A DNA stretch of 64,000 bases from an uncultured Elusimicrobia bacterium (GCA_963702895.1 OY969767.1:2144001-2208000), one strand, 5' to 3'. Shown: positions 36,829-64,000, counted from the stretch's first letter. Notes: generated by a model from the sequence alone, not told the origin. Numbers and translations are program-made.

Positions 36829-38148
36829 TCAACCGGTAGACGCGATCACCACAGACAGCCCCAACACGCCATAGCGCGCCTCTTCAAAAACCCGCCGGAA
36901 CGGGTAGTTTTCCGGAATCTTTAACCACAGATAGCGCGACTTCCGGCACACTGTCCCGGCCAAGCGGATCAGCCGGTGCCGCAGCGTCTGGATCGTGAAG
37001 CTCTGCCAGGCTTTCGGCAGAACCAAATGCTTGAAGGCTGCCGTGACCACCGACGCCAACATCGCGATCTGGAAATAGGCGGCATTGGCCATAAAATCCC
37101 GGCACGGCAGCTTGGATAATCCAAACCCACCCTCGCTCTTCATCTCCCGGTTCACGTTCTCCGACCCATCCTGCCGGTTACGGTGAAATTGCAGAACCAA
37201 TCCCGGTTCCCATGTGAACCGCGTCGCCACCGCATGGTATTCAAAGTGCTCCTTATCGAAAAGCTCGCCTTGCGGCTCCTGCTGCCAGCGCACCACGACC
37301 AACCGAAATGCGGCGATATCCTTGTCCGCCTCCCCAAAAGCATGCACCGTCTCGGCAATCTCAGATCCCTTATGGGGATAGACCGGCGAGTTGTACTTCT
37401 TCCAGGCCTTCTCCGGAATCGACCGAATCGCTTCCAAAACGGCATCATCCTTGCGCGCCGTGATGGTGAAGTCCACCCCGGCCCGATCCAATTCCCGAAC
37501 CACCTTCGCCTGATACCCCGCGCTGTCTGAGCGCGCCCTCATCCGCAAACCGGAAAACTGCCGCAAGACCCGCCGCAACAAACTCGCCAGGTTCGCCATC
37601 GGGCTCGCATTGCCTGCCCGAAACGCCCCGGCCAGCGGCATCTTCAGCTCCGCGCAACTGACCATCACCGGACAATACCCTTCCAGTCCATCGTAATTCA
37701 TCAAGACGCCTTCCTTCTGTGACTCCAAAAAATAAGCGTCGATATCGATCGTCACAATAGACAGCTCGCAGGCCCGGATCACCTTCGCCGCCGTCTTGAG
37801 CTGGACCCATCCCAACCCATGAATCGTCTTGCGCCCAAAACGCCGAAGAAATTCGCCCAACGTGTTCGCTGCCGGAAAATCCCCCAGCAAGCGCCGTATC
37901 CCCTCGTCCCCTTGCAGCAGCCCGATGTCTTCGAGCGCTTCCCCGCCCGCCTGGATCGATCCCATCAACCCCAAAATACTCTCGGCAGGATCGTATCCCC
38001 GCGCCCGCTCCTTCACCGGCAGCGCATTGAGCCGCTCCTCCAACCCCAGGCTCCGTGCCGTCCCCAACAACAACGGCAGCCCTGCAAAACTCGTCACCGC
38101 TTGATCCGTCGTCGAGACCTTGTATACGTCCAAGTTCTTCAGTAACAT
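36829..38148 (-). mobile_element. IS1380-family transposase (element ends not resolved)
   Basis: TSFAGL, IDID, FRAGN, RSDSAGY, ANAAYFQIAMLA, TLRHRLIRLAG; hairpin upstream of start at 38150-38197. Confidence 0.88.
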
Positions 38149-38331
38149 AAAAGCACCTCGCAGTTCAGATTCCACTCTGGCTTGCGAGGTATTTTATTGC
38201 CTCTGCGCGTCGCTGTAAAATCACGCGCTGCACCCTTTTTCAAAGCCTCCTGTGTTGACCCCTCATTTTTCACCCAATAAGTGAAACCCTTCGTCTTCGA
38301 TCCCGCCACCAACACCTACACCAAGGCCGTC

Positions 38332-52019: not shown

Positions 52020-55000
52020 TCACCGGATCACCACCACTTGCCCCGTCTTTTTGGCTCCGCCGTCCGCCTTCAGGTGATAGACGTAAATCCCCGAGGCCAC
52101 CCGGTCGCCGCTTTCATTGGTCAGGTCCCAGGTGACCGAGCTGCTTGAGGTGGGCAGCGTCTTCACGTGGTGCCCCGAGACTGTAAAGATCTTGATCTCG
52201 GTATCGATCGTGAGACTGTCAAAAGTGACCGACCTCGCCGCGTGCCGGTCGCTCCGCCAAGGGTTGGGATAGACCCGGACCTGATCGAGATTGGCTGACA
52301 CCAGCGTTACCTGCGCCGAAGCCGGCGAAGAGGCGCTGCCGGAGGCGTCATGGGCCGTGACGGTCACGAGGTATGTTCCCAGGTCAAGGTTCTGCGCGGC
52401 GAGGCTTGCGACCGTAGAAGCCGTGGTGAAAGAGGCGCTTGGAGCATGTCCCGCACTTAGCGTCCCGTGTCTCGCGTCTTGCGTCTCGCGTCCGACGTCA
52501 ACCGCTGTCGGTGCTGGACTCGGGACCCGGAACCCGGGACTCGAGACTTGTGACGCGGGACTCGAGACTCGAGACTCGGGACTCGAGACTTGCGACGCGG
52601 GACTCGAGACTCGGGACGCGGGACCCACCATCGACGTAAACGTCCAACTGAAATACGCCGGCGCCACAGACCCGCCGTAGCCGGCGCGCACTTCGGCGTT
52701 CACCGGCAGATAAGCCGGCAGGTTCAAGGTCGGGGTGGCCAGGCCGCCGGGAGGTGGAGGGGGTGGAGGAGGAGGCGGGGGTGGTGGCACGACGATCGGA
52801 CAGCTGCCGGAGGGGCAATACTCATAGGCTCCGATGTCCCAGGCGGTACCTTGAGGCCGCGACACACCCTCCTTGTCGGTGGCGAACTCGCTTTGCACGC
52901 TTCCCGCATCGATCACCGGTGAGCCGGCCAGAGGCTTATACGATCCATCCAAACGAGGATCGACGTTCAGGCCATGGGCATCGAACCCCAGCGCGCGCCA
53001 CTCGGACCAGGTCTTGTCGGCATCTCGGTAGCGAACGAGTGCGCTCGCACCCTCATGATGGTTGTAGTCCAGCGATACAACGTTAACCCCTCCGGATAAA
53101 TCGATGCTATACCGCCCATTTTTGGAGAGGATATTATTCTGCAACTTTGAAATCGTGATGGTTCGGCCGCCTGACGCGGACGCCCTGAAACCGGTTCGCG
53201 TGTTGGAAACAATCGTGTTGTTGAGTATTTGTAGGTTTGAGATCGTGGCCCCCGCCGCCGTCGCGAAGACCTGGATGCCTTGCTGGGCATTGCCATGGAT
53301 CAGATTGTTGTAGACGAGAATGTTATTGAGCGTTTTGCCGTTCCCTGCTCCGTCGCCGTCCGCGTTAATCATGATGCCGTGCCCGCCGTCACCCACATCG
53401 CGAGGTTGGAGGCTGTAGAGCTCGTTCCCGTAGACTTGCACATCGCTTGCCGCCACAACGATCCCTGCCAGGACGCCCCCCGTAGCCCCCGCATAGACGA
53501 TGTTGTTGCGAACAATCGCTCCAAAGTTTCCCGGTTTGATGTCAATGTCCCCTTCCCCTGCCGTGCCCGCATTGATGACCGTATTGCCTTCTACCACAGT
53601 CCCCGTGATGGTGTCCGCCAGATAGTTGTAATGCCCCATGTAGATACCTTCCAGCGGGGTATTGCTGATCACGTTATCGCGGACCGTAATGTTGTAACAG
53701 CCGTCTTCGGCGTAGCCAAACCAGATCCCGTGATTGTTGACCGGGGTGTCCACAATGTTGTTCTCCACCAGCACATCGTAGATGTTGCGAGTCGGATTCG
53801 CGGTACCAAGCGCGACACCGCCCCACGACGGCCTGATGAGCTGGAACCCCCGTATAGTTATGAAGGCGTTGTCGTTGTGGACAGAGATCGTGCCGCCCCC
53901 CCCGCCTGCATGGGTCAGCGTGGCTCGATTGCCCGGTACCGTCTCCGTCTGCCACACCGCCGTGCCGCTGATCGCGGTGTTGTACTTTGATTGCCCGTCA
54001 AGTCGAAGGGGGCGCTCGGCGTTAGCGCTGGTGCCGACCGGGATGGTGAGGTACTGATCGTCGTTCCACGTGGCGCGGCTTGAGAAGTAGAGGGTGACCG
54101 GCCCAACTTGTAAGGCGCTCTTGATCAGTGTCCAATTGATGTCGCCGCGCCGCTTCCAAGGATTGGCGGCGGAACCGTCCCCCGAAGTAGTGCGGGCATA
54201 ATCAATAAAGTATTCGGTGCCCTCTGTAGCGGTAGATCCGAAAGTCGTAGCGCTCGCCGCGGCCGACAGCGCCGAGACATTCCCGGCCGCATCGTAAGCG
54301 GTCACGCGGTAGCTGTAGGACGTCGAAGGCACAAGGCCCGTGCTTATATAGGAAGTCCCACTGGTGACGCTCGAGATCCAGACCCCATTGCGATAAATAC
54401 CGTAGCCTGCCACCCCGACCGCATCAGTCGAGGCGGTCCAAGAAAGATTGATCGCTGTCGAAGAAACGGCCACCGCCGCGAGGCCCGTCGGCACCGAAGG
54501 GGGGGTCGTGTCCGGCGGAGGGGGTGCTCCACTTGTTGCGGCGACGTAGAGGGTTTTGCTCGCGTAAAGCGGGTAAACCCTCACGCCGAGCGCTCCGCCG
54601 CCCACAGAGCAAGTGTAAGGACTTGCGTTGTCGACCGTGGTCGGGATGCCATCCTCGTAACAAACGACAAAACGAACAAGCTCCGTGTCCGAGGGCGTTA
54701 CAGTAACAAGCCCGCCCGACTGAGAATAGGTCGCGCTCAAGGTGTAGCCGCCCGCCTTGTAGGGATACGCCCCGATGTCGGGTGTGGCATCGTGACCGAA
54801 GTACACCGCCTCCCCGTTGGCCCATGTGAAGGACGGCGTAACGGTGATGGCGTTTCCTGAGATACTCACCACGGTCACGACGTCGGTGCCGACCGTGATC
54901 GTATCGCCCACCACCACATTGCCGCCATATTGCGTGATGGTCGTATCATCATCAGAAAAGTAGCTGGCGTCACCCACCATGAACGTCGTGCCCGTATTGT

Positions 55001-56369
55001 TGGCGGACGTGACCGTCGTGAGCGGACCACCTGCATTTCGTGCGGGTGAGCCAGACTGAAGCGTAAAATCTCGAGTTGCCGCATTGGTCACTAATGGATT
55101 CGTATTCCGGAGAGAATGCGCTTCGGCGTTGATTGTACTCGCGTAATTGATCGATCCGCCTATATCGTAAAAAATATTGTAGTCATGCACGGCGGGAGTA
55201 TCATCATAGACACCGACTGGATTCGTCCCTGGCCACCACGCTTGGTGCCAGATATTGTTCAAGACCCCTCGGCCAGCCGCGACGTTACTACCACGGTCAT
55301 AAGTGACATAATGCGAGGCATATGCGATGGTTTCGTGATAAATTTTGAGGAAAGCCTGTCCGTCCGCAAGCCCAAAACACTGCCCGCCTGCGTTGCCATT
55401 ACTGGACCAGACGTTTCGCCGGAATATCGTATAGGCGTCCAAGCTGGCTGAATTGGTTTCGATATTGGTACAGTGATGTTCACTTCCGGACTCATCGGCG
55501 TAGAAATTCCCCTCATACAGTGAGTGGCCCAAGCCAATAGAATCCTGACCGGATTGAATGAAATCGGTATGAGATGAAGGAGCCGCATTCACATTATGGC
55601 TATAGTTGTTCAGTAGCCTATTTCTTTGCCCAAAGAGATAGATGAAGTCAACCTCGGGGGTGTCGGATTCGTTATAGGCAATGACGTTGCTGTTGCCACG
55701 AACCTGAAAATCTTTGAATGCGGAATGCTTAATCACATTGCCGATAAAGAGACAGTTGTTGGATTGGTATAGCCTAGCTCCGTTGTCCGTTCTTATGGAA
55801 TCTCCTTCAAAGTTCTGTATGGTGTTATTCCATATCTCAACATAATCAGCATTTTGCAGGTAGATCCCATCGTTTCTGGTATTTCCGCCTTCGACGATAA
55901 AACCTATCACTCGAATCCAATCGCCAGTAATGACCCATCCGAAATTCGTCACAGACCCATCAGCCACGAAGGTGATGTAGTTTCCGGCAGACCCCGAGCT
56001 ACTGGCCGTGACTACCTCTGCGTAAGTGCCCGCCTGCACCCGGATCACATCTCCCGCCGCGACGTGATCGGCCGCCCAGTCGATGGTCCGCCACGCCCCG
56101 CCCGAGGTGTTCGTCAATCCGGTGTTGGTGTTGTTCCCATCGGCGCGGACATAATAGGTGGCCGCTTGCGCCGCCGGAGCAGCCAGCATCAAGAGAAGGA
56201 CGTATCGGAGTAACGGGGTAACGGTGTATCGGAGTAACGGCACGACGGCAGCGAGCAGCACAAAGCGAACAGCGCACAGAGCACAGCGTGCGGCATCACG
56301 TTCTCCGCTGTTCGCTCTTCTCTGTTCGCTCTGCGCTGCCGTTGTGTTGATGCGCTGATAACGACTCAC
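52020..56369 (-). CDS. Secreted protein: beta-helix, FN3, beta-helix, Pro linker, Ig-like domain, CTD; array gene 3
   Basis: ATYYVRADGNN, DTTPPSVPTGL FN3, RPQGTAWDIGAYEY, CTD. Confidence 0.82.
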   Translation of the reverse strand: MSRYQRINTTAAQSEQRRANSGERDAARCALCAVRFVLLAAVVPLLRYTVTPLLRYVLLLMLAAPAAQAATYYVRADGNNTNTGLTNTSGGAWRTIDWAADHVAAGDVIRVQAGTYAEVVTASSSGSAGNYITFVADGSVTNFGWVITGDWIRVIGFIVEGGNTRNDGIYLQNADYVEIWNNTIQNFEGDSIRTDNGARLYQSNNCLFIGNVIKHSAFKDFQVRGNSNVIAYNESDTPEVDFIYLFGQRNRLLNNYSHNVNAAPSSHTDFIQSGQDSIGLGHSLYEGNFYADESGSEHHCTNIETNSASLDAYTIFRRNVWSSNGNAGGQCFGLADGQAFLKIYHETIAYASHYVTYDRGSNVAAGRGVLNNIWHQAWWPGTNPVGVYDDTPAVHDYNIFYDIGGSINYASTINAEAHSLRNTNPLVTNAATRDFTLQSGSPARNAGGPLTTVTSANNTGTTFMVGDASYFSDDDTTITQYGGNVVVGDTITVGTDVVTVVSISGNAITVTPSFTWANGEAVYFGHDATPDIGAYPYKAGGYTLSATYSQSGGLVTVTPSDTELVRFVVCYEDGIPTTVDNASPYTCSVGGGALGVRVYPLYASKTLYVAATSGAPPPPDTTPPSVPTGLAAVAVSSTAINLSWTASTDAVGVAGYGIYRNGVWISSVTSGTSYISTGLVPSTSYSYRVTAYDAAGNVSALSAAASATTFGSTATEGTEYFIDYARTTSGDGSAANPWKRRGDINWTLIKSALQVGPVTLYFSSRATWNDDQYLTIPVGTSANAERPLRLDGQSKYNTAISGTAVWQTETVPGNRATLTHAGGGGGTISVHNDNAFITIRGFQLIRPSWGGVALGTANPTRNIYDVLVENNIVDTPVNNHGIWFGYAEDGCYNITVRDNVISNTPLEGIYMGHYNYLADTITGTVVEGNTVINAGTAGEGDIDIKPGNFGAIVRNNIVYAGATGGVLAGIVVAASDVQVYGNELYSLQPRDVGDGGHGIMINADGDGAGNGKTLNNILVYNNLIHGNAQQGIQVFATAAGATISNLQILNNTIVSNTRTGFRASASGGRTITISKLQNNILSKNGRYSIDLSGGVNVVSLDYNHHEGASALVRYRDADKTWSEWRALGFDAHGLNVDPRLDGSYKPLAGSPVIDAGSVQSEFATDKEGVSRPQGTAWDIGAYEYCPSGSCPIVVPPPPPPPPPPPPPGGLATPTLNLPAYLPVNAEVRAGYGGSVAPAYFSWTFTSMVGPASRVSSPASQVSSPESRVSSPASQVSSPGFRVPSPAPTAVDVGRETQDARHGTLSAGHAPSASFTTASTVASLAAQNLDLGTYLVTVTAHDASGSASSPASAQVTLVSANLDQVRVYPNPWRSDRHAARSVTFDSLTIDTEIKIFTVSGHHVKTLPTSSSSVTWDLTNESGDRVASGIYVYHLKADGGAKKTGQVVVIR

Positions 56370-59300
56370 TTAATCACCACCACTTTCCCCGTCTTTTTGG
56401 CTCCGCCTTCCGCCTTCAGGTGATAGACATAGATCCCCGAGGCCACCCGGTCGCCGCTCTCATTGGTCAGGTCCCAGGTGATGGAGCTGCTTGAGGTGGG
56501 CAGCGTCTTCACGTGATGCCCCGAGACCGTGAAGATCTTGATCTCGGTATCGACCGTGAGTTGGTCAAAGGTGACTGACCTTGTGCTGTGCCGGTCGCTG
56601 CGCCAGGGGTTGGGATAAACACGGACCTGATCGAGATTGGCCGAGACGAGCGTCACCTGCGCCGATGCCGGTGAAGAGGCGCTGCCAGAGGCGTCATGGG
56701 CCGTGACGGTCACAAGGTATGTTCCCAGGTCAAGGTTCTGCGCGGCGAGGCTTGCGACCGTTGAAGCCGTGGTGAAAGAGGCGCTTGGAGCATGTCCCGC
56801 ACTTAGCGTCCCGTGTCTCGCGTCTGGCGTCTCGCGTCCGACGTCAACCGCTGTCGGTGCTGGACTCGGGACCCGGGACCCGGGACTCGAGACTTGTGAC
56901 GCGGGACTCGAGACTCGGGACTCGGGACTCGAGACTTGCGACGCGGGACTCGAGACTCGGGACGCGGGACCCACCATCGACGTAAACGTCCAACTGAAAT
57001 ACGCCGGCGCCACAGACCCGCCGTAGCCGGCGCGCACTTCGGCGTTGACCGGCAGATAGTCAGGAAGATTGAGCGTCGGCCTGGACAGGCCGCTGGGTGG
57101 AGGAGGCGAAGACGGCGCCTGCGTCGTAGCGCTTGCCGCGACCGACAGCGCCGAGACATTCCCGGCCGCATCATAAGCCGTCACGCGGTAGCTGTAAGAC
57201 GTCGAAGACACAAGGCCCGTGCTTATATAGGAAGTCCCACTGGTGACGCTCGAGATCCAGACCCCATTGCGATAAATACCGTAGCCTGCCACCCCGACCG
57301 CATCAGTCGAGGCGGTCCAAGAAAGATTGATCGCTGTCGAAGAAACGGCCACCGCCGCGAGGCCCGTCGGCACCGATGGCGGGGTCGTGTCCGGAGGCGG
57401 GGTGCTGGTCGTGTATTCATAGGCTCCGACGTCAGGAGCACTGCCGTAAAGCACCCTCATGCCATCTGATTTCCTGTAGAGCCACACAGAATCGCCGTCA
57501 TTGCGGCTGATGCTGTTGGCCAGGGTCAGCGTATGGGTGAGATAGTCTATGGCTAAAATCTGCCCTGTATTGGCCGCCGATCCTACAGCGATCCAGTCCG
57601 CGTTCGTGCCTGCCCAGCCCGGCTGAAAATACCCGGCATCCTGGAGGATCAGCGTCGTTCCCGATCCGCCGTCCGAAGTGGCCACCGTCGTGAGGGCAGC
57701 TCCGGCATCAATGGCGGGGGAAGTCGCTTGGAGAGTGCCGTTCGAAGGATAGTTGGCGAGGAGAGGGTTCCTGTTCTTCAAGGTGTTATAGGTCGCTTCC
57801 ATGCTGATCGGACCCATCCACTCCCCAGTGTACCCGTCCGCATACGGGAGATTGCCGTTGGATTCCTGAGTTCCTGACCCCCCGGTGTAGATCGGCCAGC
57901 GATTCAGCGTGCTGATCGTGTTGTAGCAGAGGTTGTTCTTGGCACGGCTGTAAGGCGAGTTCGCGGGCATCATCATGCAGCTGAGGTCCGAGGAGGATGG
58001 CCCACCGGCCGAAATGGTGTTGCTGAAGAGATAGTACCGGCTCTGATTGGTGCATGGCACACAGATCCCCGGCGCGGCGAGATCTTGGACGTTGTGGGTG
58101 TAGTTGTATCGCATGATGATGTTCCGTTGCGCCCCATAACTCCCAGACTCCAGCCACGTAAAATGGGAGTTGCCGGTCGGATCGAGCGCGTTCCGAAAGA
58201 CATTGCCCTCGATCAGACTCTCAATGATCTCCGTCGGCCCATTGTGGATGCCATCCATGTGCGCGGGGGACTGAACGCCGGTTTCGTCCGCGTCCATGTC
58301 ATGCAGGACATTATTCCGGATGACGGAGTGGTTCCCACCCCAGTTGATGGCGTCATCGGTCGTATGCGAGATGTCGTTCCCTTCAATCAGCGTGTTGTCG
58401 CCATAGCTCGCAATCCCCCAGGCTGTCCCATTGGACTCCAGGAGATAGTACCACCCGCATCGTGTGATGACGTTGTTTCGGATGATGGCGTGATGCGAAC
58501 GGGAGCCGCTCGCCGGATTGAAGCGGACGCAGGTGTTGCGCTCCGCCGTGATGGAGTTATTCTCCACCGTGACACCGATGGCAGAATTCACGTCCACGCC
58601 GATGGATGACGTACTGCCGGTGTGGATCGTGAACCCCGAAATCGTGAGGTAGGGATGGGTGATGGAGAACCCCCGCACCGTGGGCCTCTGTCCCGTTGCC
58701 GCGGCGATGCTGATGCGAGCGCTGTTCGAGGTGCCGCCGCGCACTGAAGACACGCGCTCGTTGTAAGTCCCGTCATAAACCTCGCAGGTCTGCCCCGCTT
58801 GTGCCGCGTTCACGCAGGCCTGAATCGTCGTGAAGTGGCCGGAGCCATCGGGTTTAACCGTATAGGTGTCCGGTGGCGGGGACACCCCAGGCGTTGCGGC
58901 GACGTAGAGAGTTTTGCTCGCGTAAAGCGGGTAAACCCTCACCTCGAGCGCTCCGCCGCCCACAGGGCAAGCATAAGGACTGGTGTGATCGACCGTGGTC
59001 GGTATGCCGTCTTCATAGCACACCACAAAACGAACCAGCCCCGCGTCGGAAGGCGTGACGGTCACGACCCCGCCGGATTGAGAATAGGTCGCGCTCAGCG
59101 TGTACCCGCCCGCCTTGTAGGGATAGGCTCCAATGTCCGGAGTCGTTGTAGAACCATAGTAGACAGGTTCGCCGTTGGCCCAGGTAAACGGCGACGTGAC
59201 GGTGATGGCATCCCCGGCAACGCTGGCGATGGTGACGACATCGTTGCCAACCGTGATGGTGTCGCCGACAATGAGGTTCCCACCGTACTGGGAGAGGTTC

Positions 59301-61327
59301 GTGTTGTCACCCCGGAAGAACCCCCCTCCAGGGGTCGCTACGTTGAAGGTCGTCCCCGTTCCGCTGCCGCTCACCGTTGTAAGCGGTCCGGCCTTGCCGA
59401 TGGCCCCGGAACCAGCGCCCAGGGTGAAGTCATCCGTGGCGAAATTGACGAATCGCGGGTTGACGTTCGACTGTTCATGGGCTTGCATCGTCCACATCGA
59501 CGCAAAAGAAACAGGGCCATCGGGGTCATACGCAAGGTTGTAGTCGGACGTCAGCCCGCCCGTCACATAAAAGACTTCTAAGTTGGAGGTGGCACTGTCC
59601 CCCCAGCTTTGATATTCGAGATTGTTCAAGATGAAGCCGTCGGACGTCATCGGTCCGTACCAGCACACCCCGTATCGCGTCGTGGGGGAGTTGCGGGAAG
59701 CGCCAGCGGTCGTGTTGTTGTAATAGCGCGTGAAACTGACGGGTCCAACACTGGTTTGATTAATACCCACCGTTGCTTGGCTGACGTTATGCCAGACGTT
59801 GCGGCGGAAGATATTTTCCGTCATAGGGCCGCAGGCACCGGTGCAATTCCCTGGTTGGCCGTGACTGATCTGGGCCGTATGTTCATCCCCGGCGTTGCCG
59901 ACACCCACTTGGAAGTGGCCCTCAATCAAACTGTTGCTCCAGCCCCGATTGTTTGAGCCGGTCTGAAAAACATCGGAATGACCACCCGAGGCTTCACTGA
60001 AATCGTGCGTATAATTTCCAATCCATCGGTTATGGGAGCCCATGATCAAGAATCCATCAGGGTGGGAATTATAAACTTCGTTATAGGCGATGAAATTATT
60101 GTCACCCCAGGTGCCGACGGCCATGCCGGAACCGTTGCCGATGCCAAAATTCGCGAAGGTGTTGCCGATGATGAGGCTATTATTAATCACTCCGCTGCAG
60201 CCGTAGCCGCATCGGATGCCATTACCTAGCCCATTTCTGATGGTGTTGTTCCAAAACTCTAAATAGCTTACGGTACCGCATATCAAAACAACCCCACTTT
60301 GGAGACTGCACGAGCCTGCATCCGAATCCATGGAAAAGCCAATGACGCGAATGAAATTGTTGCCGGTAAAATCAAACCCGCAGACCGTGACGGCTCCGTC
60401 AGCCATGAACGTAACGGTGTTCGACACGGATGTCCCATTCACCCCCGGCGTAACGCGCTCTTCATACGTGCCAGGCTGAACGCGGACGACATCGCCCGCT
60501 CTGACGTGATCCGCCGCCCAGTCGATGCTACGCCACGCCCCGCCAGTTGTGTTCGACGTCCCGGGGTTGCCATTGTTCCCGTCGGTCCGGACATAGTAGG
60601 TCGCCGCCTGCGCCTTGGATAGGACTAAAATAAAGACTAAAATCAGACCTAATATAGTCTTGAAATAAGACCTCTTGTAGTCTATAATCGGTTCAGGAGG
60701 TCTCATGAGAATCATCCAATTCGCAAAAGACATTGTCCCAATCGGAGCCTTCAAGGCGCAGGCCGCGGCGTGGCTGAGTCGTCTTCGGGAAACCGGACAT
60801 TTGGTCGTCATCACACAGAATGGTAAACCGGCAGGGATTCTTCTTTCCCCGTCGGAGTTTGATCGGATCCAGGAGAAAGAGCGATTTTTAGAGTCTGTGG
60901 CCAAAGGCCTTGCAGACGCTGAAGCCAACCGGGTCATGAGCAGCTCAGAGCTCAAGCGACGACTTGGCGCGTGGCGGCAAGCGAAAAAGGCTTCGTGAGG
61001 GTTGTTTGGACGGAGCAGGCGCTGGAGCGGCTCCAGGAAATTGAAGATTTTATCTCTCAAGATTCTCCCGAACGAGCGGACCGTTTTATCACCCGCTTGA
61101 TCGAACGCGGCGATGCCGTCGCCTCTTTTCCCAGCACGGGACGCCAAGTCCCTGAGTTGGGATTGGGCTCGATCAGAGAAGTTCTCGAAGGCAACTACCG
61201 CCTTGTGTATCGCATCACTCCGGTGCGCATTGAAGTCCTGACTGTTTTCGAGGGCCACCGGCAGCTGCCGCTCAGCGACATCACGCCGCAAACGTAACCC
61301 GCTCATCACTTTACGGTTGTCTCGCAT
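56366..61327 (-). CDS. Secreted protein: two beta-helices, FN3, Ig-like domain, CTD; array gene 2 (start either 61327 or 60706)
   Basis: Open frame from the ATG abutting the upstream stop; signal peptide ILGLILVFILVLSKAQA near 60606-60655. Confidence 0.8.
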   Translation of the reverse strand: MRDNRKVMSGLRLRRDVAERQLPVALENSQDFNAHRSDAIHKAVVAFENFSDRAQSQLRDLASRAGKRGDGIAAFDQAGDKTVRSFGRILRDKIFNFLEPLQRLLRPNNPHEAFFACRHAPSRRLSSELLMTRLASASARPLATDSKNRSFSWIRSNSDGERRIPAGLPFCVMTTKCPVSRRRLSHAAACALKAPIGTMSFANWMILMRPPEPIIDYKRSYFKTILGLILVFILVLSKAQAATYYVRTDGNNGNPGTSNTTGGAWRSIDWAADHVRAGDVVRVQPGTYEERVTPGVNGTSVSNTVTFMADGAVTVCGFDFTGNNFIRVIGFSMDSDAGSCSLQSGVVLICGTVSYLEFWNNTIRNGLGNGIRCGYGCSGVINNSLIIGNTFANFGIGNGSGMAVGTWGDNNFIAYNEVYNSHPDGFLIMGSHNRWIGNYTHDFSEASGGHSDVFQTGSNNRGWSNSLIEGHFQVGVGNAGDEHTAQISHGQPGNCTGACGPMTENIFRRNVWHNVSQATVGINQTSVGPVSFTRYYNNTTAGASRNSPTTRYGVCWYGPMTSDGFILNNLEYQSWGDSATSNLEVFYVTGGLTSDYNLAYDPDGPVSFASMWTMQAHEQSNVNPRFVNFATDDFTLGAGSGAIGKAGPLTTVSGSGTGTTFNVATPGGGFFRGDNTNLSQYGGNLIVGDTITVGNDVVTIASVAGDAITVTSPFTWANGEPVYYGSTTTPDIGAYPYKAGGYTLSATYSQSGGVVTVTPSDAGLVRFVVCYEDGIPTTVDHTSPYACPVGGGALEVRVYPLYASKTLYVAATPGVSPPPDTYTVKPDGSGHFTTIQACVNAAQAGQTCEVYDGTYNERVSSVRGGTSNSARISIAAATGQRPTVRGFSITHPYLTISGFTIHTGSTSSIGVDVNSAIGVTVENNSITAERNTCVRFNPASGSRSHHAIIRNNVITRCGWYYLLESNGTAWGIASYGDNTLIEGNDISHTTDDAINWGGNHSVIRNNVLHDMDADETGVQSPAHMDGIHNGPTEIIESLIEGNVFRNALDPTGNSHFTWLESGSYGAQRNIIMRYNYTHNVQDLAAPGICVPCTNQSRYYLFSNTISAGGPSSSDLSCMMMPANSPYSRAKNNLCYNTISTLNRWPIYTGGSGTQESNGNLPYADGYTGEWMGPISMEATYNTLKNRNPLLANYPSNGTLQATSPAIDAGAALTTVATSDGGSGTTLILQDAGYFQPGWAGTNADWIAVGSAANTGQILAIDYLTHTLTLANSISRNDGDSVWLYRKSDGMRVLYGSAPDVGAYEYTTSTPPPDTTPPSVPTGLAAVAVSSTAINLSWTASTDAVGVAGYGIYRNGVWISSVTSGTSYISTGLVSSTSYSYRVTAYDAAGNVSALSVAASATTQAPSSPPPPSGLSRPTLNLPDYLPVNAEVRAGYGGSVAPAYFSWTFTSMVGPASRVSSPASQVSSPESRVSSPASQVSSPGSRVPSPAPTAVDVGRETPDARHGTLSAGHAPSASFTTASTVASLAAQNLDLGTYLVTVTAHDASGSASSPASAQVTLVSANLDQVRVYPNPWRSDRHSTRSVTFDQLTVDTEIKIFTVSGHHVKTLPTSSSSITWDLTNESGDRVASGIYVYHLKAEGGAKKTGKVVVIK
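60660..60688 (+). promoter_or_regulatory. Sigma70 promoter of the TA operon with AGAC-N8-GTCT operator-like palindromes
   Basis: TTGAAA-N17-TATAAT; agacctaatatagtct and agacctcttgtagtct; AGGAGG RBS. Confidence 0.75.
60705..60998 (+). CDS. Phd/YefM family antitoxin
   Basis: DIVPIGAFKAQA, LVVITQNGKPAGILLSP.EFD. Confidence 0.9.
   Translation: MRIIQFAKDIVPIGAFKAQAAAWLSRLRETGHLVVITQNGKPAGILLSPSEFDRIQEKERFLESVAKGLADAEANRVMSSSELKRRLGAWRQAKKAS
60995..61297 (+). CDS. RelE/ParE family toxin
   Basis: VVWTEQALERLQEI.DFI..DSP, FP..GRQVPE, REV..GNYRLVYR; GTGA overlap with antitoxin. Confidence 0.9.
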   Translation: MRVVWTEQALERLQEIEDFISQDSPERADRFITRLIERGDAVASFPSTGRQVPELGLGSIREVLEGNYRLVYRITPVRIEVLTVFEGHRQLPLSDITPQT

Positions 61328-64000
61328 TTATTTGATCACCACCACTTTCCCCGTCTTTTTGGCTCCGCCTTCCGCCTTCAGGTGATAGACGTAGATCCCC
61401 GAGGCCACCCGGTCGCCGCTTTCATTCGTCAGGTCCCAGATGACGGAGCTGCTTGAGCTCGGAAGCGTCTTCACGTGGTGCCCCGAGACCGTGAAGATCT
61501 TGATCTCGGTATCGATCGTGAGACTGTCAAAAGTGACCGACCTCGCCGCGTGCCGGTCGCTCCGCCAAGGGTTGGGATAGACCCGGACCTGATCGAGATT
61601 GGCTGACACCAGCGTTACCTGCGCCGAAGCCGGCGAAGAGGCGCTGCCGGAGGCGTCATGGGCCGTGACGGTCACGAGGTATGTTCCCAGGTCAAGGTTC
61701 TGCGCGGCGAGGCTTGCGACCGTAGAAGCCGTGGTGAAAGAGGCGCTTGGAGCATGTCCCGCACTTAGCGTCCCGTGTCTCGCGTCTTGCGTCTCGCGTC
61801 CGACGTCAACCGCTGTCGGTGCTGGACTCGGGACCCGGGACTCGGGACTCGAGACTTGTGACGCGGGACTCGAGACTCGGGACTCGGGACGGTTCACCTG
61901 AACAAACGTCCAACTGAAATACGCCGGCGCCACAGACCCGCCGTAGCCGGCGCGCACTTCGGCGTTCACCGGCAAATACGCGGGCAAATTCAGTGTCGGT
62001 GTGGAGAGGCTCCCGGGCGGGGGAGGTGACGGCGGAGGGGGTGGCGGCAGCACGATCGGACAGCTACCCGAGGGGCAATACTCATAGGCACCTGCCTCCG
62101 GGGCACTCCCATCGTAGGCCAGAGACACCCCTTGTCCGCTCGTCCAGCTCAGAGAACGATCCACGGTCAAGGTCTTGGAAGTATAGTCAACCGCCAACAC
62201 ACGCGCGCGCTGCGCACTTCCCAGCAATTGGATCAGATCTCCCTCCACGATGCCCCATCCATCCATAAAGTAATTCGCGTTTTCCACGACGAAGGAGGTG
62301 CCCGACCCGGATGCGGAAGTGACGCTCGTCAGCGCTCCGCCCGCATCGATACAAGGACTGGTGCTCTGGAGATGCAGGTCGGGGGTCGTGTGGTCGGCGG
62401 GATCGCCCAGCGTGAGGCTCGCGCTGACAAACTTCGGATCCCCTTGAACGTCGCCATTCCAGTTATGGGCGAAGATCTGCACAGCCATGATCCCTTTGCG
62501 ATCGGGCGTGTTGATGTTGTACTCGCCGAAGGGAATGCGGTGCCCATAGAGCAGATTGTTCTTGAGCACATTGTCTCGAATCACGAGGCTCCCGCTATAG
62601 ATGCCAAACCCGATGCCGGAACTCATGTGATCGGTGGGGTCATAGGGGTTGAAGCCGTTGTGGAAAAAAGTGTTGTTGTACACCGCATTGGAGAAAATGC
62701 TCTGCAGGTAACTCGAGGTGAGGCTCATGCTCAAGCCGGCGCTGATGTTGTGGTAGAAACGGTTGAACCGCACAATATTGTGGCTTGAATTGAGTGCCGC
62801 ACCGGAGGCTCCGTTGTTGTCGGAAGGATCGGCGGAATAGGCGATCTGATTATTTTCTAAGAGATTGCGGCCGCCGTTCTCACTGTAGCCGCCAAACGAG
62901 AGATTGCGATTGCCGTAGAGGACCGCCCCGCGGTCGGACGCCGCCGTCCCCATCGACCAGGGCTCATTATGGACATAGTTGCGGCGCAACACGTTGTACA
63001 TCCCGTAAACACCCACGACATGGTGTCCGCCGTGGAAGAAGGTGTTGTCCTCGATCAGGTTATAGCGAGTTGCATCGGTTCTCCCCTCTTCGCTGCCGAT
63101 GTCGAGCACACAGCCATGGTCATCGGCGTCATAGTAACCGTATTTGGAGAATCGGCAGTGATGGATCCAGTTATGCTGGGAGCTCAGCGAAATTCTGGAA
63201 CCGCTCCAGGCACCGGCGCTCGAGCCTTGATCAAAATTACAGTAGGCGATGATGTTGTGATTGGCCCCGTTTTGCAAAAACATGAAGCGGTAAAGAGAAT
63301 GAAAGTTGATGCCCTGGACGGTAATGTAGGACTTGCCGTTGAGAGAAATGCCGTCCATGATGCCCGCAATCGTGACGACATCGGTGCCAAAATTTCGGTA
63401 CGTGATTCTCTGGGTCGAGGTGCCCGAACGCGCCGGAACAATGGCGTTGCTGTAGGTCCCTGCCTTGATGTAGACCGTGTCGCCCGCCAGCAGGGTTTGA
63501 TTGGCTTTGGTGATGGTTTTCCACGGCTGGCTGAGCGTGCCGGGATTTGCATCGTTCCCGGTGGCCTGGTCGACATAGTAAACCCCGCCTTCCAAGGTCA
63601 GCGGATGAGGATAGGGATAGGGGGTGTAATAGGCCGTCCAGGTGTTGGGGGCCGTGCACTTATACAATGTTCCGGAGATTGGCTGGGCAGGATGAGTACC
63701 GATATTCGCGGATTCGACCACGGAGCAGTTCTGATGGGTTGCCCAGTAACCAACTCCGGTGGTGCAGGTCGCGGGAAGTTTGTCAAAGCTGCCGCATCCA
63801 ATCCCCGTTGAGCCGTCAAAGGAGGAGGCATAATTAAAGAATTCTGAATTTTCTTTTATGACATTGCAGCAATCGTTGACCACTTGGTACTGCGAAGTGT
63901 GGTCAGGAATAACATCCCAGTTTAATTTTGTTGTCAGGCGTGTGTTCGTGATGCTATCAAGCTGGCGAAATTGTCCTGTGCCGGTTCCGCTCAGTATTTT
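61328..64000 (-). CDS. Secreted multi-beta-helix protein with CTD; array gene 1 (5' end beyond window)
   Basis: Frame is open to position 64000; YYTPYPYPHPL, YYVDQATGND.NPGT..QPWKTI, CTD. Confidence 0.82.
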   Translation of the reverse strand, partial: KILSGTGTGQFRQLDSITNTRLTTKLNWDVIPDHTSQYQVVNDCCNVIKENSEFFNYASSFDGSTGIGCGSFDKLPATCTTGVGYWATHQNCSVVESANIGTHPAQPISGTLYKCTAPNTWTAYYTPYPYPHPLTLEGGVYYVDQATGNDANPGTLSQPWKTITKANQTLLAGDTVYIKAGTYSNAIVPARSGTSTQRITYRNFGTDVVTIAGIMDGISLNGKSYITVQGINFHSLYRFMFLQNGANHNIIAYCNFDQGSSAGAWSGSRISLSSQHNWIHHCRFSKYGYYDADDHGCVLDIGSEEGRTDATRYNLIEDNTFFHGGHHVVGVYGMYNVLRRNYVHNEPWSMGTAASDRGAVLYGNRNLSFGGYSENGGRNLLENNQIAYSADPSDNNGASGAALNSSHNIVRFNRFYHNISAGLSMSLTSSYLQSIFSNAVYNNTFFHNGFNPYDPTDHMSSGIGFGIYSGSLVIRDNVLKNNLLYGHRIPFGEYNINTPDRKGIMAVQIFAHNWNGDVQGDPKFVSASLTLGDPADHTTPDLHLQSTSPCIDAGGALTSVTSASGSGTSFVVENANYFMDGWGIVEGDLIQLLGSAQRARVLAVDYTSKTLTVDRSLSWTSGQGVSLAYDGSAPEAGAYEYCPSGSCPIVLPPPPPPSPPPPGSLSTPTLNLPAYLPVNAEVRAGYGGSVAPAYFSWTFVQVNRPESRVSSPASQVSSPESRVPSPAPTAVDVGRETQDARHGTLSAGHAPSASFTTASTVASLAAQNLDLGTYLVTVTAHDASGSASSPASAQVTLVSANLDQVRVYPNPWRSDRHAARSVTFDSLTIDTEIKIFTVSGHHVKTLPSSSSSVIWDLTNESGDRVASGIYVYHLKAEGGAKKTGKVVVIK

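Follow-up and report, generated by a model that had tools for sequence, protein, structure and literature searches.

Toxin-antitoxin (TA) operons of the YefM-YoeB type carry paired palindromic operators over their promoter (PMC3920265), and TA cassettes stabilise the superintegron of Vibrio cholerae (bioRxiv 10.1101/2023.11.17.567518). A relE toxin gene has been synthetically entangled inside ilvA (bioRxiv 10.1101/2023.02.27.530340), while the overlapping genes olg1 and olg2 of Pseudomonas aeruginosa pass an overlap test at p<1e-10, with Ribo-seq and proteomics (PMC8850804). Arbitrary sequences have been found able to act as signal peptides in yeast (Kaiser et al. 1987, cited in PMC4585086). 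Here we describe a locus that touches on all of these systems. The window, the whole stretch of DNA analysed, comprises 64,000 nucleotides of an uncultured Elusimicrobia bacterium (GCA_963702895.1 OY969767.1:2144001-2208000) whose genome is a single contig of 2.72 Mb, and it contains a plus-strand Phd/YefM-ParE operon lying antisense within the open frame of a minus-strand secreted-protein gene, the host gene. Overall, the anatomy of this arrangement is real and the operon is an ordinary one; the reuse of its operators as the signal peptide of the host protein is probable, and functional read-through of the entire operon by ribosomes on the opposite strand has an even chance, all of this in a single genome.

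The host gene belongs to a 43-kb array of 12 minus-strand genes encoding secreted beta-helix-type proteins with a common T9SS-type-A-like tail; the C-terminal tails are 80–93% identical and supply the Shine-Dalgarno (SD) sequence of the next gene. At 9 of the 11 internal junctions the start codon overlaps the previous TGA and leads into a repeat-built leader of 33–82 residues, one junction has a short gap followed by an independent start, and the eleventh, between genes 6 and 7, holds the TA operon. The upstream gene (6th of 12; its 3' part at 61328..64000, minus strand, continuing to window-equivalent position 65134), with its conserved C-terminal tail and SD-like sequence, is the only one of the 12 to end in TAA. 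The mature host protein (7th of 12; 56366..60604, minus strand) consists of beta-helix-like repeats, fn3 and a T9SS-type-A-like C-terminal sorting domain, and its body of 1413 codons is intact, with a dN/dS of 0.20–0.23 against the closest paralog that cannot place selection after the TA insertion. The operon occupies, in antisense, the slot in which the sister genes carry their start codon and leader, as the original prediction had stated, and the native host leader has been lost up to the signal-peptidase site.

Directly upstream of the mature protein the host frame encodes a signal-peptide-like segment (60605..60706, minus strand) that appears to combine the features of a Sec/signal peptidase I substrate, namely a basic n-region, a 12-residue h-region (60655-60620; Kyte-Doolittle mean 3.61) and an A-X-A site aligned with the paralogs, here an A-Q-A motif common to the sisters whose use as the cleavage site is predicted from the alignment with sister proteins. 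Two imperfect palindromes, the putative TA operators (60645-60660 and 60668-60683), are conserved in motif and position in standalone homologs and read (I)DYKRS and KTILGL on the minus strand. They are joined by two extra in-frame 12-nt units (60620..60643, minus strand) encoding ILVF and ILVL, which resemble operator half-sites and are absent upstream of the closest homologs; SKAQA follows, and here identity with the sisters starts. The proposal that the TA promoter and its repeats encode the n- and h-regions is accordingly right in that operator DNA does so, but only ILGL and the n-region derive from the operators that are conserved in the family, and ILVF-ILVL comes from the extra units.

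The core value of 3.61 lies above those of the nine coupled sisters (1.95–2.55); the promoters of 88 homologs offer 264 antisense frames, the best of which reaches 3.1, and none of 20,000 dinucleotide shuffles reached 3.5. In simulations that included half-site duplications, the share of trials yielding an open frame together with a core at the level of the sisters (2.0) ranged from 0.4% for 68 homolog promoters to 2.4% for the promoter of the locus itself; under this duplication-aware null a core at 3.5 arose in ~5e-5 of trials. The hydrophobic core clearly exceeds chance, and on these sequence comparisons the signal peptide has very probably been selected.

The operon consists of a Phd/YefM antitoxin (97 aa; 60705-60998, plus strand; PF02604 at 55.8 bits, TIGR01552) and a toxin of the ParE/RelE superfamily (100 aa; 60995-61297, plus strand; PF05016 at 60.9 bits, TIGR02385 just above cut-off), whose GTG start overlaps the antitoxin stop by 4 nt and whose best PDB matches are ParE-type. 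Both are preceded by a sigma-70-type promoter (60660-60688, plus strand; -35/-10 with a 17-nt spacer, 11/12 consensus) and an antitoxin SD sequence (60695-60700, plus strand; -11.2 kcal/mol). Phased half-sites form two palindromes across -35/-10 in homologous promoters; six exact half-sites in phase and one more at the SD sequence occur here, compared with at most five by the same exact pattern in 76 homologs. From the toxin stop to the upstream-gene stop there is a spacer of 30 nt (61298..61327) with no terminator-like site. Comparison of the TA genes with the three closest homologs gave proportions of non-synonymous (pN) and synonymous (pS) differences of 0.16–0.25 and 0.71–0.86, respectively, the saturation of pS meaning that these closest homologs are no near relatives. 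Both genes look functional and appear to be under purifying selection, and at the level of sequence the operon is an intact, ordinary type II Phd/YefM-ParE member with its own promoter.

On the opposite strand, the frame running from 61327 to 56366 is open for 1653 codons and its first codon is the ATG directly after the upstream TAA (61325..61327, minus strand), 207 codons ahead of an internal ATG at 60706. All coordinates of the original prediction were reproduced, together with its statements that this frame opens at the stop-abutting ATG, that it crosses both TA genes without a stop and that toxin and antitoxin use different frames on the plus strand; the toxin is codon-aligned with the antisense host frame and the antitoxin is offset. 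The resulting leader (60707..61327, minus strand; 207 codons) is basic (36 K+R, 19 D+E) and without a hydrophobic segment (best 12-residue mean 1.4). It was rejected as a conserved domain, as the 240-residue leader matched no Pfam family and, among 1522 candidate proteins of 909–2893 aa, only the one from its own genome, so that no homolog fused to a long protein was found.

These observations can be interpreted as follows. A new signal peptide would have been built from the antisense of the TA operators and two 12-nt duplication-like junction units, which we regard as highly probable, and would have been retained owing to the continued need to export the host protein. On completing the upstream gene, ribosomes would restart at the stop-abutting ATG by way of the tail SD sequence common to array genes. 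They would read through the antisense of the entire operon, producing 207 residues of disposable cytoplasmic leader, and the hydrophobic segment would serve as an internal signal-anchor that is cleaved after A-Q-A. Counted from the internal ATGs, this segment lies in the N-terminal place usual for a Sec signal peptide, within about 40 residues of the start; counted from the ATG at 61327 it does not. It is feasible for an internal signal-anchor to be cleaved even when a long cytoplasmic N-terminus precedes it. The sequence of such a leader would be unimportant; its openness would preserve coupling and would shield six downstream genes from polarity dependent on Rho, which the genome encodes. 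Coupled translation through a disposable leader is the best reading we can offer, and we give it an even chance of being correct.

The start site carries part of this reading. Of 17 in-frame starts, the ATG at 61327 has the strongest ribosome-binding site (-15.7 kcal/mol), compared with -5.9, -0.9 and -5.4 for the internal ATGs at 60733, 60715 and 60706 and with -8.6 to -14.7 for the SD duplexes of the sisters, which share the same tail sequence. Its opening energy is 6.7 as against 8.9–11.4 for the internal ATGs. With a random 30-nt spacer included, the probability that 61327-60718 is open was 0.076, falling to 0.001 when the first codon must be ATG and to 0.0066 when any start in the first two codons is accepted. 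By our estimate, however, the usual overlap geometry would provide a coupled in-frame start after about one-third of random insertions, and the start was weighed about threefold because of this and because zero-gap starts are not enriched. Multiplied by about thirteenfold for openness, set against a prior of a few per cent and allowing for selection from a large scan, this leads to the roughly even odds given above. The TAA-ATG junction (61325-61334) may derive from a sister overlap junction by a 4-nt duplication, with the start shifted by one frame, an origin that is speculative as the following bases fit inexactly.

Alternatively, translation may begin at one of the internal ATGs (60706, 60715 or 60733) within the first codons of the antitoxin, which would yield a 33–42-residue signal peptide and leave the open frame as a by-product of codon usage, a known cause of long open reading frames (ORFs) in frame -1 (PMC3454372). 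We hold this to be a serious possibility, though clearly under even, and much of what weighs against read-through speaks for it. Synonymous-codon resampling predicted 2.3 antisense stops and a probability of 0.080 (genome codon use) or 0.086 (homolog codon use) that both genes are open, so that the lack of stops is weak evidence; the antitoxin lacks tyrosine, which favours an open antisense frame, and olg1/olg2 reach p<1e-10 where this locus reaches about 0.08, which leaves it at most a candidate among selected overlapping genes. Among 161 homologous loci, 30 showed no recognisable pair, 3 were truncated, 5 had genes that were short or odd and 15 were duplicates; in the 108 operons left after these were set aside, the same frame is stop-free in 20 and some frame in 24. 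The original prediction had counted common antisense openness in homologs against itself, and this is borne out in number but only at a guanine-plus-cytosine (GC) content of at least 0.61: all 20 open homologs, several of them near-identical lineages, lie in that range, while none of the 14 at GC 0.52–0.60 is open and the operon described here has a GC of 0.56. One homolog (L118, GC 0.65) has a GTG-started frame of 474 codons (L118:2453-3877, minus strand) that spans its whole TA operon, also crosses another small gene and then enters a PIN-domain toxin gene with its own upstream partner gene; this is most likely a chance look-alike, one in 108. Site-specific loss of conserved antisense stops was considered and rejected, as homolog stops are scattered (commonest site 9/34) and gave no signal. 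By itself, the open frame exceeds chance only weakly.

Further points on the same side concern the start and the transcript. The strong SD sequence of ATG 61327 is inherited and not independent evidence, sister start regions span opening energies of 6.9–14.4, so that structure does not exclude the internal ATGs, and zero-gap starts number 13 genome-wide versus 147 4-nt overlaps and 11–15 for gaps of 1–3 nt, as counted, like the SD frequencies, in a crude gene set of the genome. In that set an SD of -10 or better occurs in 9% of genes, which makes weak-SD starts normal; one array gene starts independently after a gap, so that internal starts are possible; and the internal-start leader would fall within the 33–82-residue range of the sisters, with the database gene call for the host (1446 aa) beginning at 60706. 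With 176 C against 167 G, the antisense strand shows no overall enrichment in C and no clear Rho-loading signature, no second genome with the same arrangement or an orthologous locus was found among the genomes searched, and the case was picked from a very large scan. Against an internal start stand the extra coincidence that it demands, a first-codon ATG behind a strong SD (jointly 0.001–0.007), the weak SD sequences of the internal ATGs and their position inside a predicted long stem. The ATG at 60706 falls in this stem, and its enclosing region, in a folding window chosen to include the inverted repeat described below, folds better than 200 of 200 shuffles (z -2.9). The idea of an independent start at 60706 likewise loses ground, as its ribosome-binding site is weak and no minus-strand promoter was found in 60300-61700. 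The palindrome at 60701-60710, considered as a special bidirectional start and rejected, does hold both the antitoxin ATG and the minus-strand ATG, but this is trivial: the genome has 4 copies of it, and in 50 of the 79 homologous antitoxins that begin with ATG the preceding base is C, which yields the same antisense ATG.

The junction itself bears on two further explanations. A 16-nt inverted repeat (15/16) has one arm exactly at the TA/host-gene junction (60602..60617) and the other within the antitoxin (60752..60767), is codon-aligned in both genes, where it encodes KAQAA, and is predicted to close the stem in the array mRNA that encloses the internal ATGs and signal codons. None of 1173 genomic coding stretches of equal length reached 15/16, and the 12-nt core common to the sisters was matched at 11/12 in 23 of the 1173. 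These properties would suit an invertible switch in which the 134-nt segment between the arms flips and joins the TA promoter and the opening 16 codons of the antitoxin in frame to the host gene; the flipped state, however, would comprise promoterless antitoxin and toxin genes and a host protein without a signal peptide, and synonymous resampling that kept the shared amino acids produced a 15/16 match in 7% of cases (217/3000). We consider such a switch very improbable, and a microhomology or template-switch scar of the insertion is the simplest interpretation of the repeat. It is also improbable, though less so, that the insertion took the host leader and recently inactivated the gene, with the frame, the ATG and the hydrophobic stretch as junction accidents. 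An A-rich promoter has a T-rich antisense, which inherently encodes hydrophobic residues, any duplicated unit brings the same hydrophobicity again and the dN/dS against the paralog does not show that selection acted after the insertion; yet with duplications modelled, a sister-level h-region in an open frame remained at 0.4–2.4% and one this hydrophobic at 5e-5, and all 1413 host codons are intact. Contigs of three public runs (X1-X3) neither cover 60510-61317 nor give a joint across the operon, and are uninformative on its presence, expression or inversion.

Returning to coupled translation, this reading gains an additional element from the place of the operon in the array, one that is not needed for the other steps. 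Situated amid 80–93% identical tail repeats, the operon would penalise array deletions by post-segregational killing; 36 of the 66 possible tail-to-tail deletions would remove it, which is the maximum possible, and the suggestion that it may stabilise the array fits this position in the exact middle. The array extends in the window over 41276-64000 and on to genome position 2228050, its proteins being mosaic and its leaders translated short repeats. Beyond it lies a tail-bearing gene of opposite orientation (genome 2228366-2232109), and ~3 kb downstream of the array end an ORF of 448 aa (window 36829-38175, minus strand) looks by eye like an IS1380-type transposase. In run X1, two contigs with a loose end at 61330 pass from an array tail into a sister-type leader, a 16-nt probe of which is absent from the present genome (G000); at low depth, this hints weakly at strain-variable array content.

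Among relatives, none of the three TA homologs closest to this one (L008, L037, L117) is nested, and each has 2–3 antisense stops, L037 and L117 being standalone. The second Phd-ParE pair of the same genome (L236:7570-8347; G000:C1:647602-648172), located beside an ORF resembling an insertion sequence, has closed antisense frames with 9, 11 and 6 stops. A search of 400 further genomes of the phylum gave antitoxin matches at E<=1e-12 in 3, and the host N-terminal domain gave a weak match in 1 of 40 other genomes. In 32 tail-domain loci (own genome included), antisense TA genes within 1.5 kb were seen by eye among the listed ORFs only here and in genome G004, which has the closest family-level homolog, likewise antisense behind a tail-bearing gene but intergenic. 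At that locus (L233:15000-18300; G004:C5), RHH+PIN, Phd+ParE and DUF4258+DUF2283 antisense pairs are stacked behind a tail-bearing secreted-protein gene, set apart in cassette-like fashion by long repeats that form hairpins and by a 190-nt element, present in duplicate, which itself folds into a hairpin of ~116 nt. In L117, a TA pair of Xre/RES-type appearance by eye (L117:2220-3341), with heptamer repeats upstream, adjoins the 72%-identical Phd-ParE homolog.

In summary, this locus may be a natural entanglement in which a secreted-protein gene begins with a whole addiction operon in translated form; the operators would have been selected in antisense for export, and the coding sequence would have stayed free of stops so that coupled ribosomes can pass. 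We regard this combined proposition as possible, not far short of even. If it is true, the host gene would be beheaded by loss of the operon, the toxin would be released when the centre of the array is deleted, and an inserted selfish module would have a route to absorption that leaves the coupled operon unbroken. A signal peptide on the opposite strand would have been made from regulatory DNA, and the host gene would tolerate an operon of 600 nt as its translated leader, giving a natural counterpart of synthetic gene entanglement in which one DNA stretch is promoter, operator and export signal. If the internal start alone is used, the promoter-to-signal-peptide reuse stands and the nesting becomes ordinary shadow-frame noise.

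In comparison to known systems, the locus resembles YefM-YoeB-type operons in gene order, 4-nt overlap, protein families and the two palindromes overlapping -35/-10, but differs in its operator motif from their TGTACA core and in that the putative operators and both genes lie inside an opposite-strand frame (PMC3920265). No natural nested TA operon or operator-encoded signal peptide was met in the literature searched, most subscription papers falling outside that search. As in the V. cholerae superintegron, a self-promoted TA operon sits in a long, repeat-rich array whose deletion would, by analogy, trigger post-segregational killing; unlike it, the array consists of large coupled paralogs and the operon overlaps a host gene in place of forming its own cassette (bioRxiv 10.1101/2023.11.17.567518). 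No integron cassette structure was seen, in an analysis that made no search aimed at attC or integrase, and no hairpin flanking the TA ends besides the junction repeat was present among the largest repeats listed for 54000-64000. The likeness extends to phage P4 eta, reportedly a read-through frame kept open to carry transcription, in that the function would be translation itself across opposite-strand genes; unlike eta, the setting is a chromosomal surface-protein array and the leader is fused to an exported protein. With olg1/olg2 the locus shares several hundred nucleotides coding on both strands and the same synonymous-resampling test, while the overlap here would be a disposable leader and not a new protein (PMC8850804). 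As with the random-insert signals of yeast, export signals have degenerate sequences and can readily arise de novo, whereas the source in this bacterial genome is the antisense of a repressor operator array (PMC4585086). Finally, as in relE-in-ilvA, a RelE-superfamily toxin lies wholly within the frame of another gene and the mutational fates of the two are tied; that system is engineered, includes the toxin only and constrains the host sequence, in contrast to the present locus, which is natural, antisense and comprises a whole operon whose host part is unconstrained (bioRxiv 10.1101/2023.02.27.530340).

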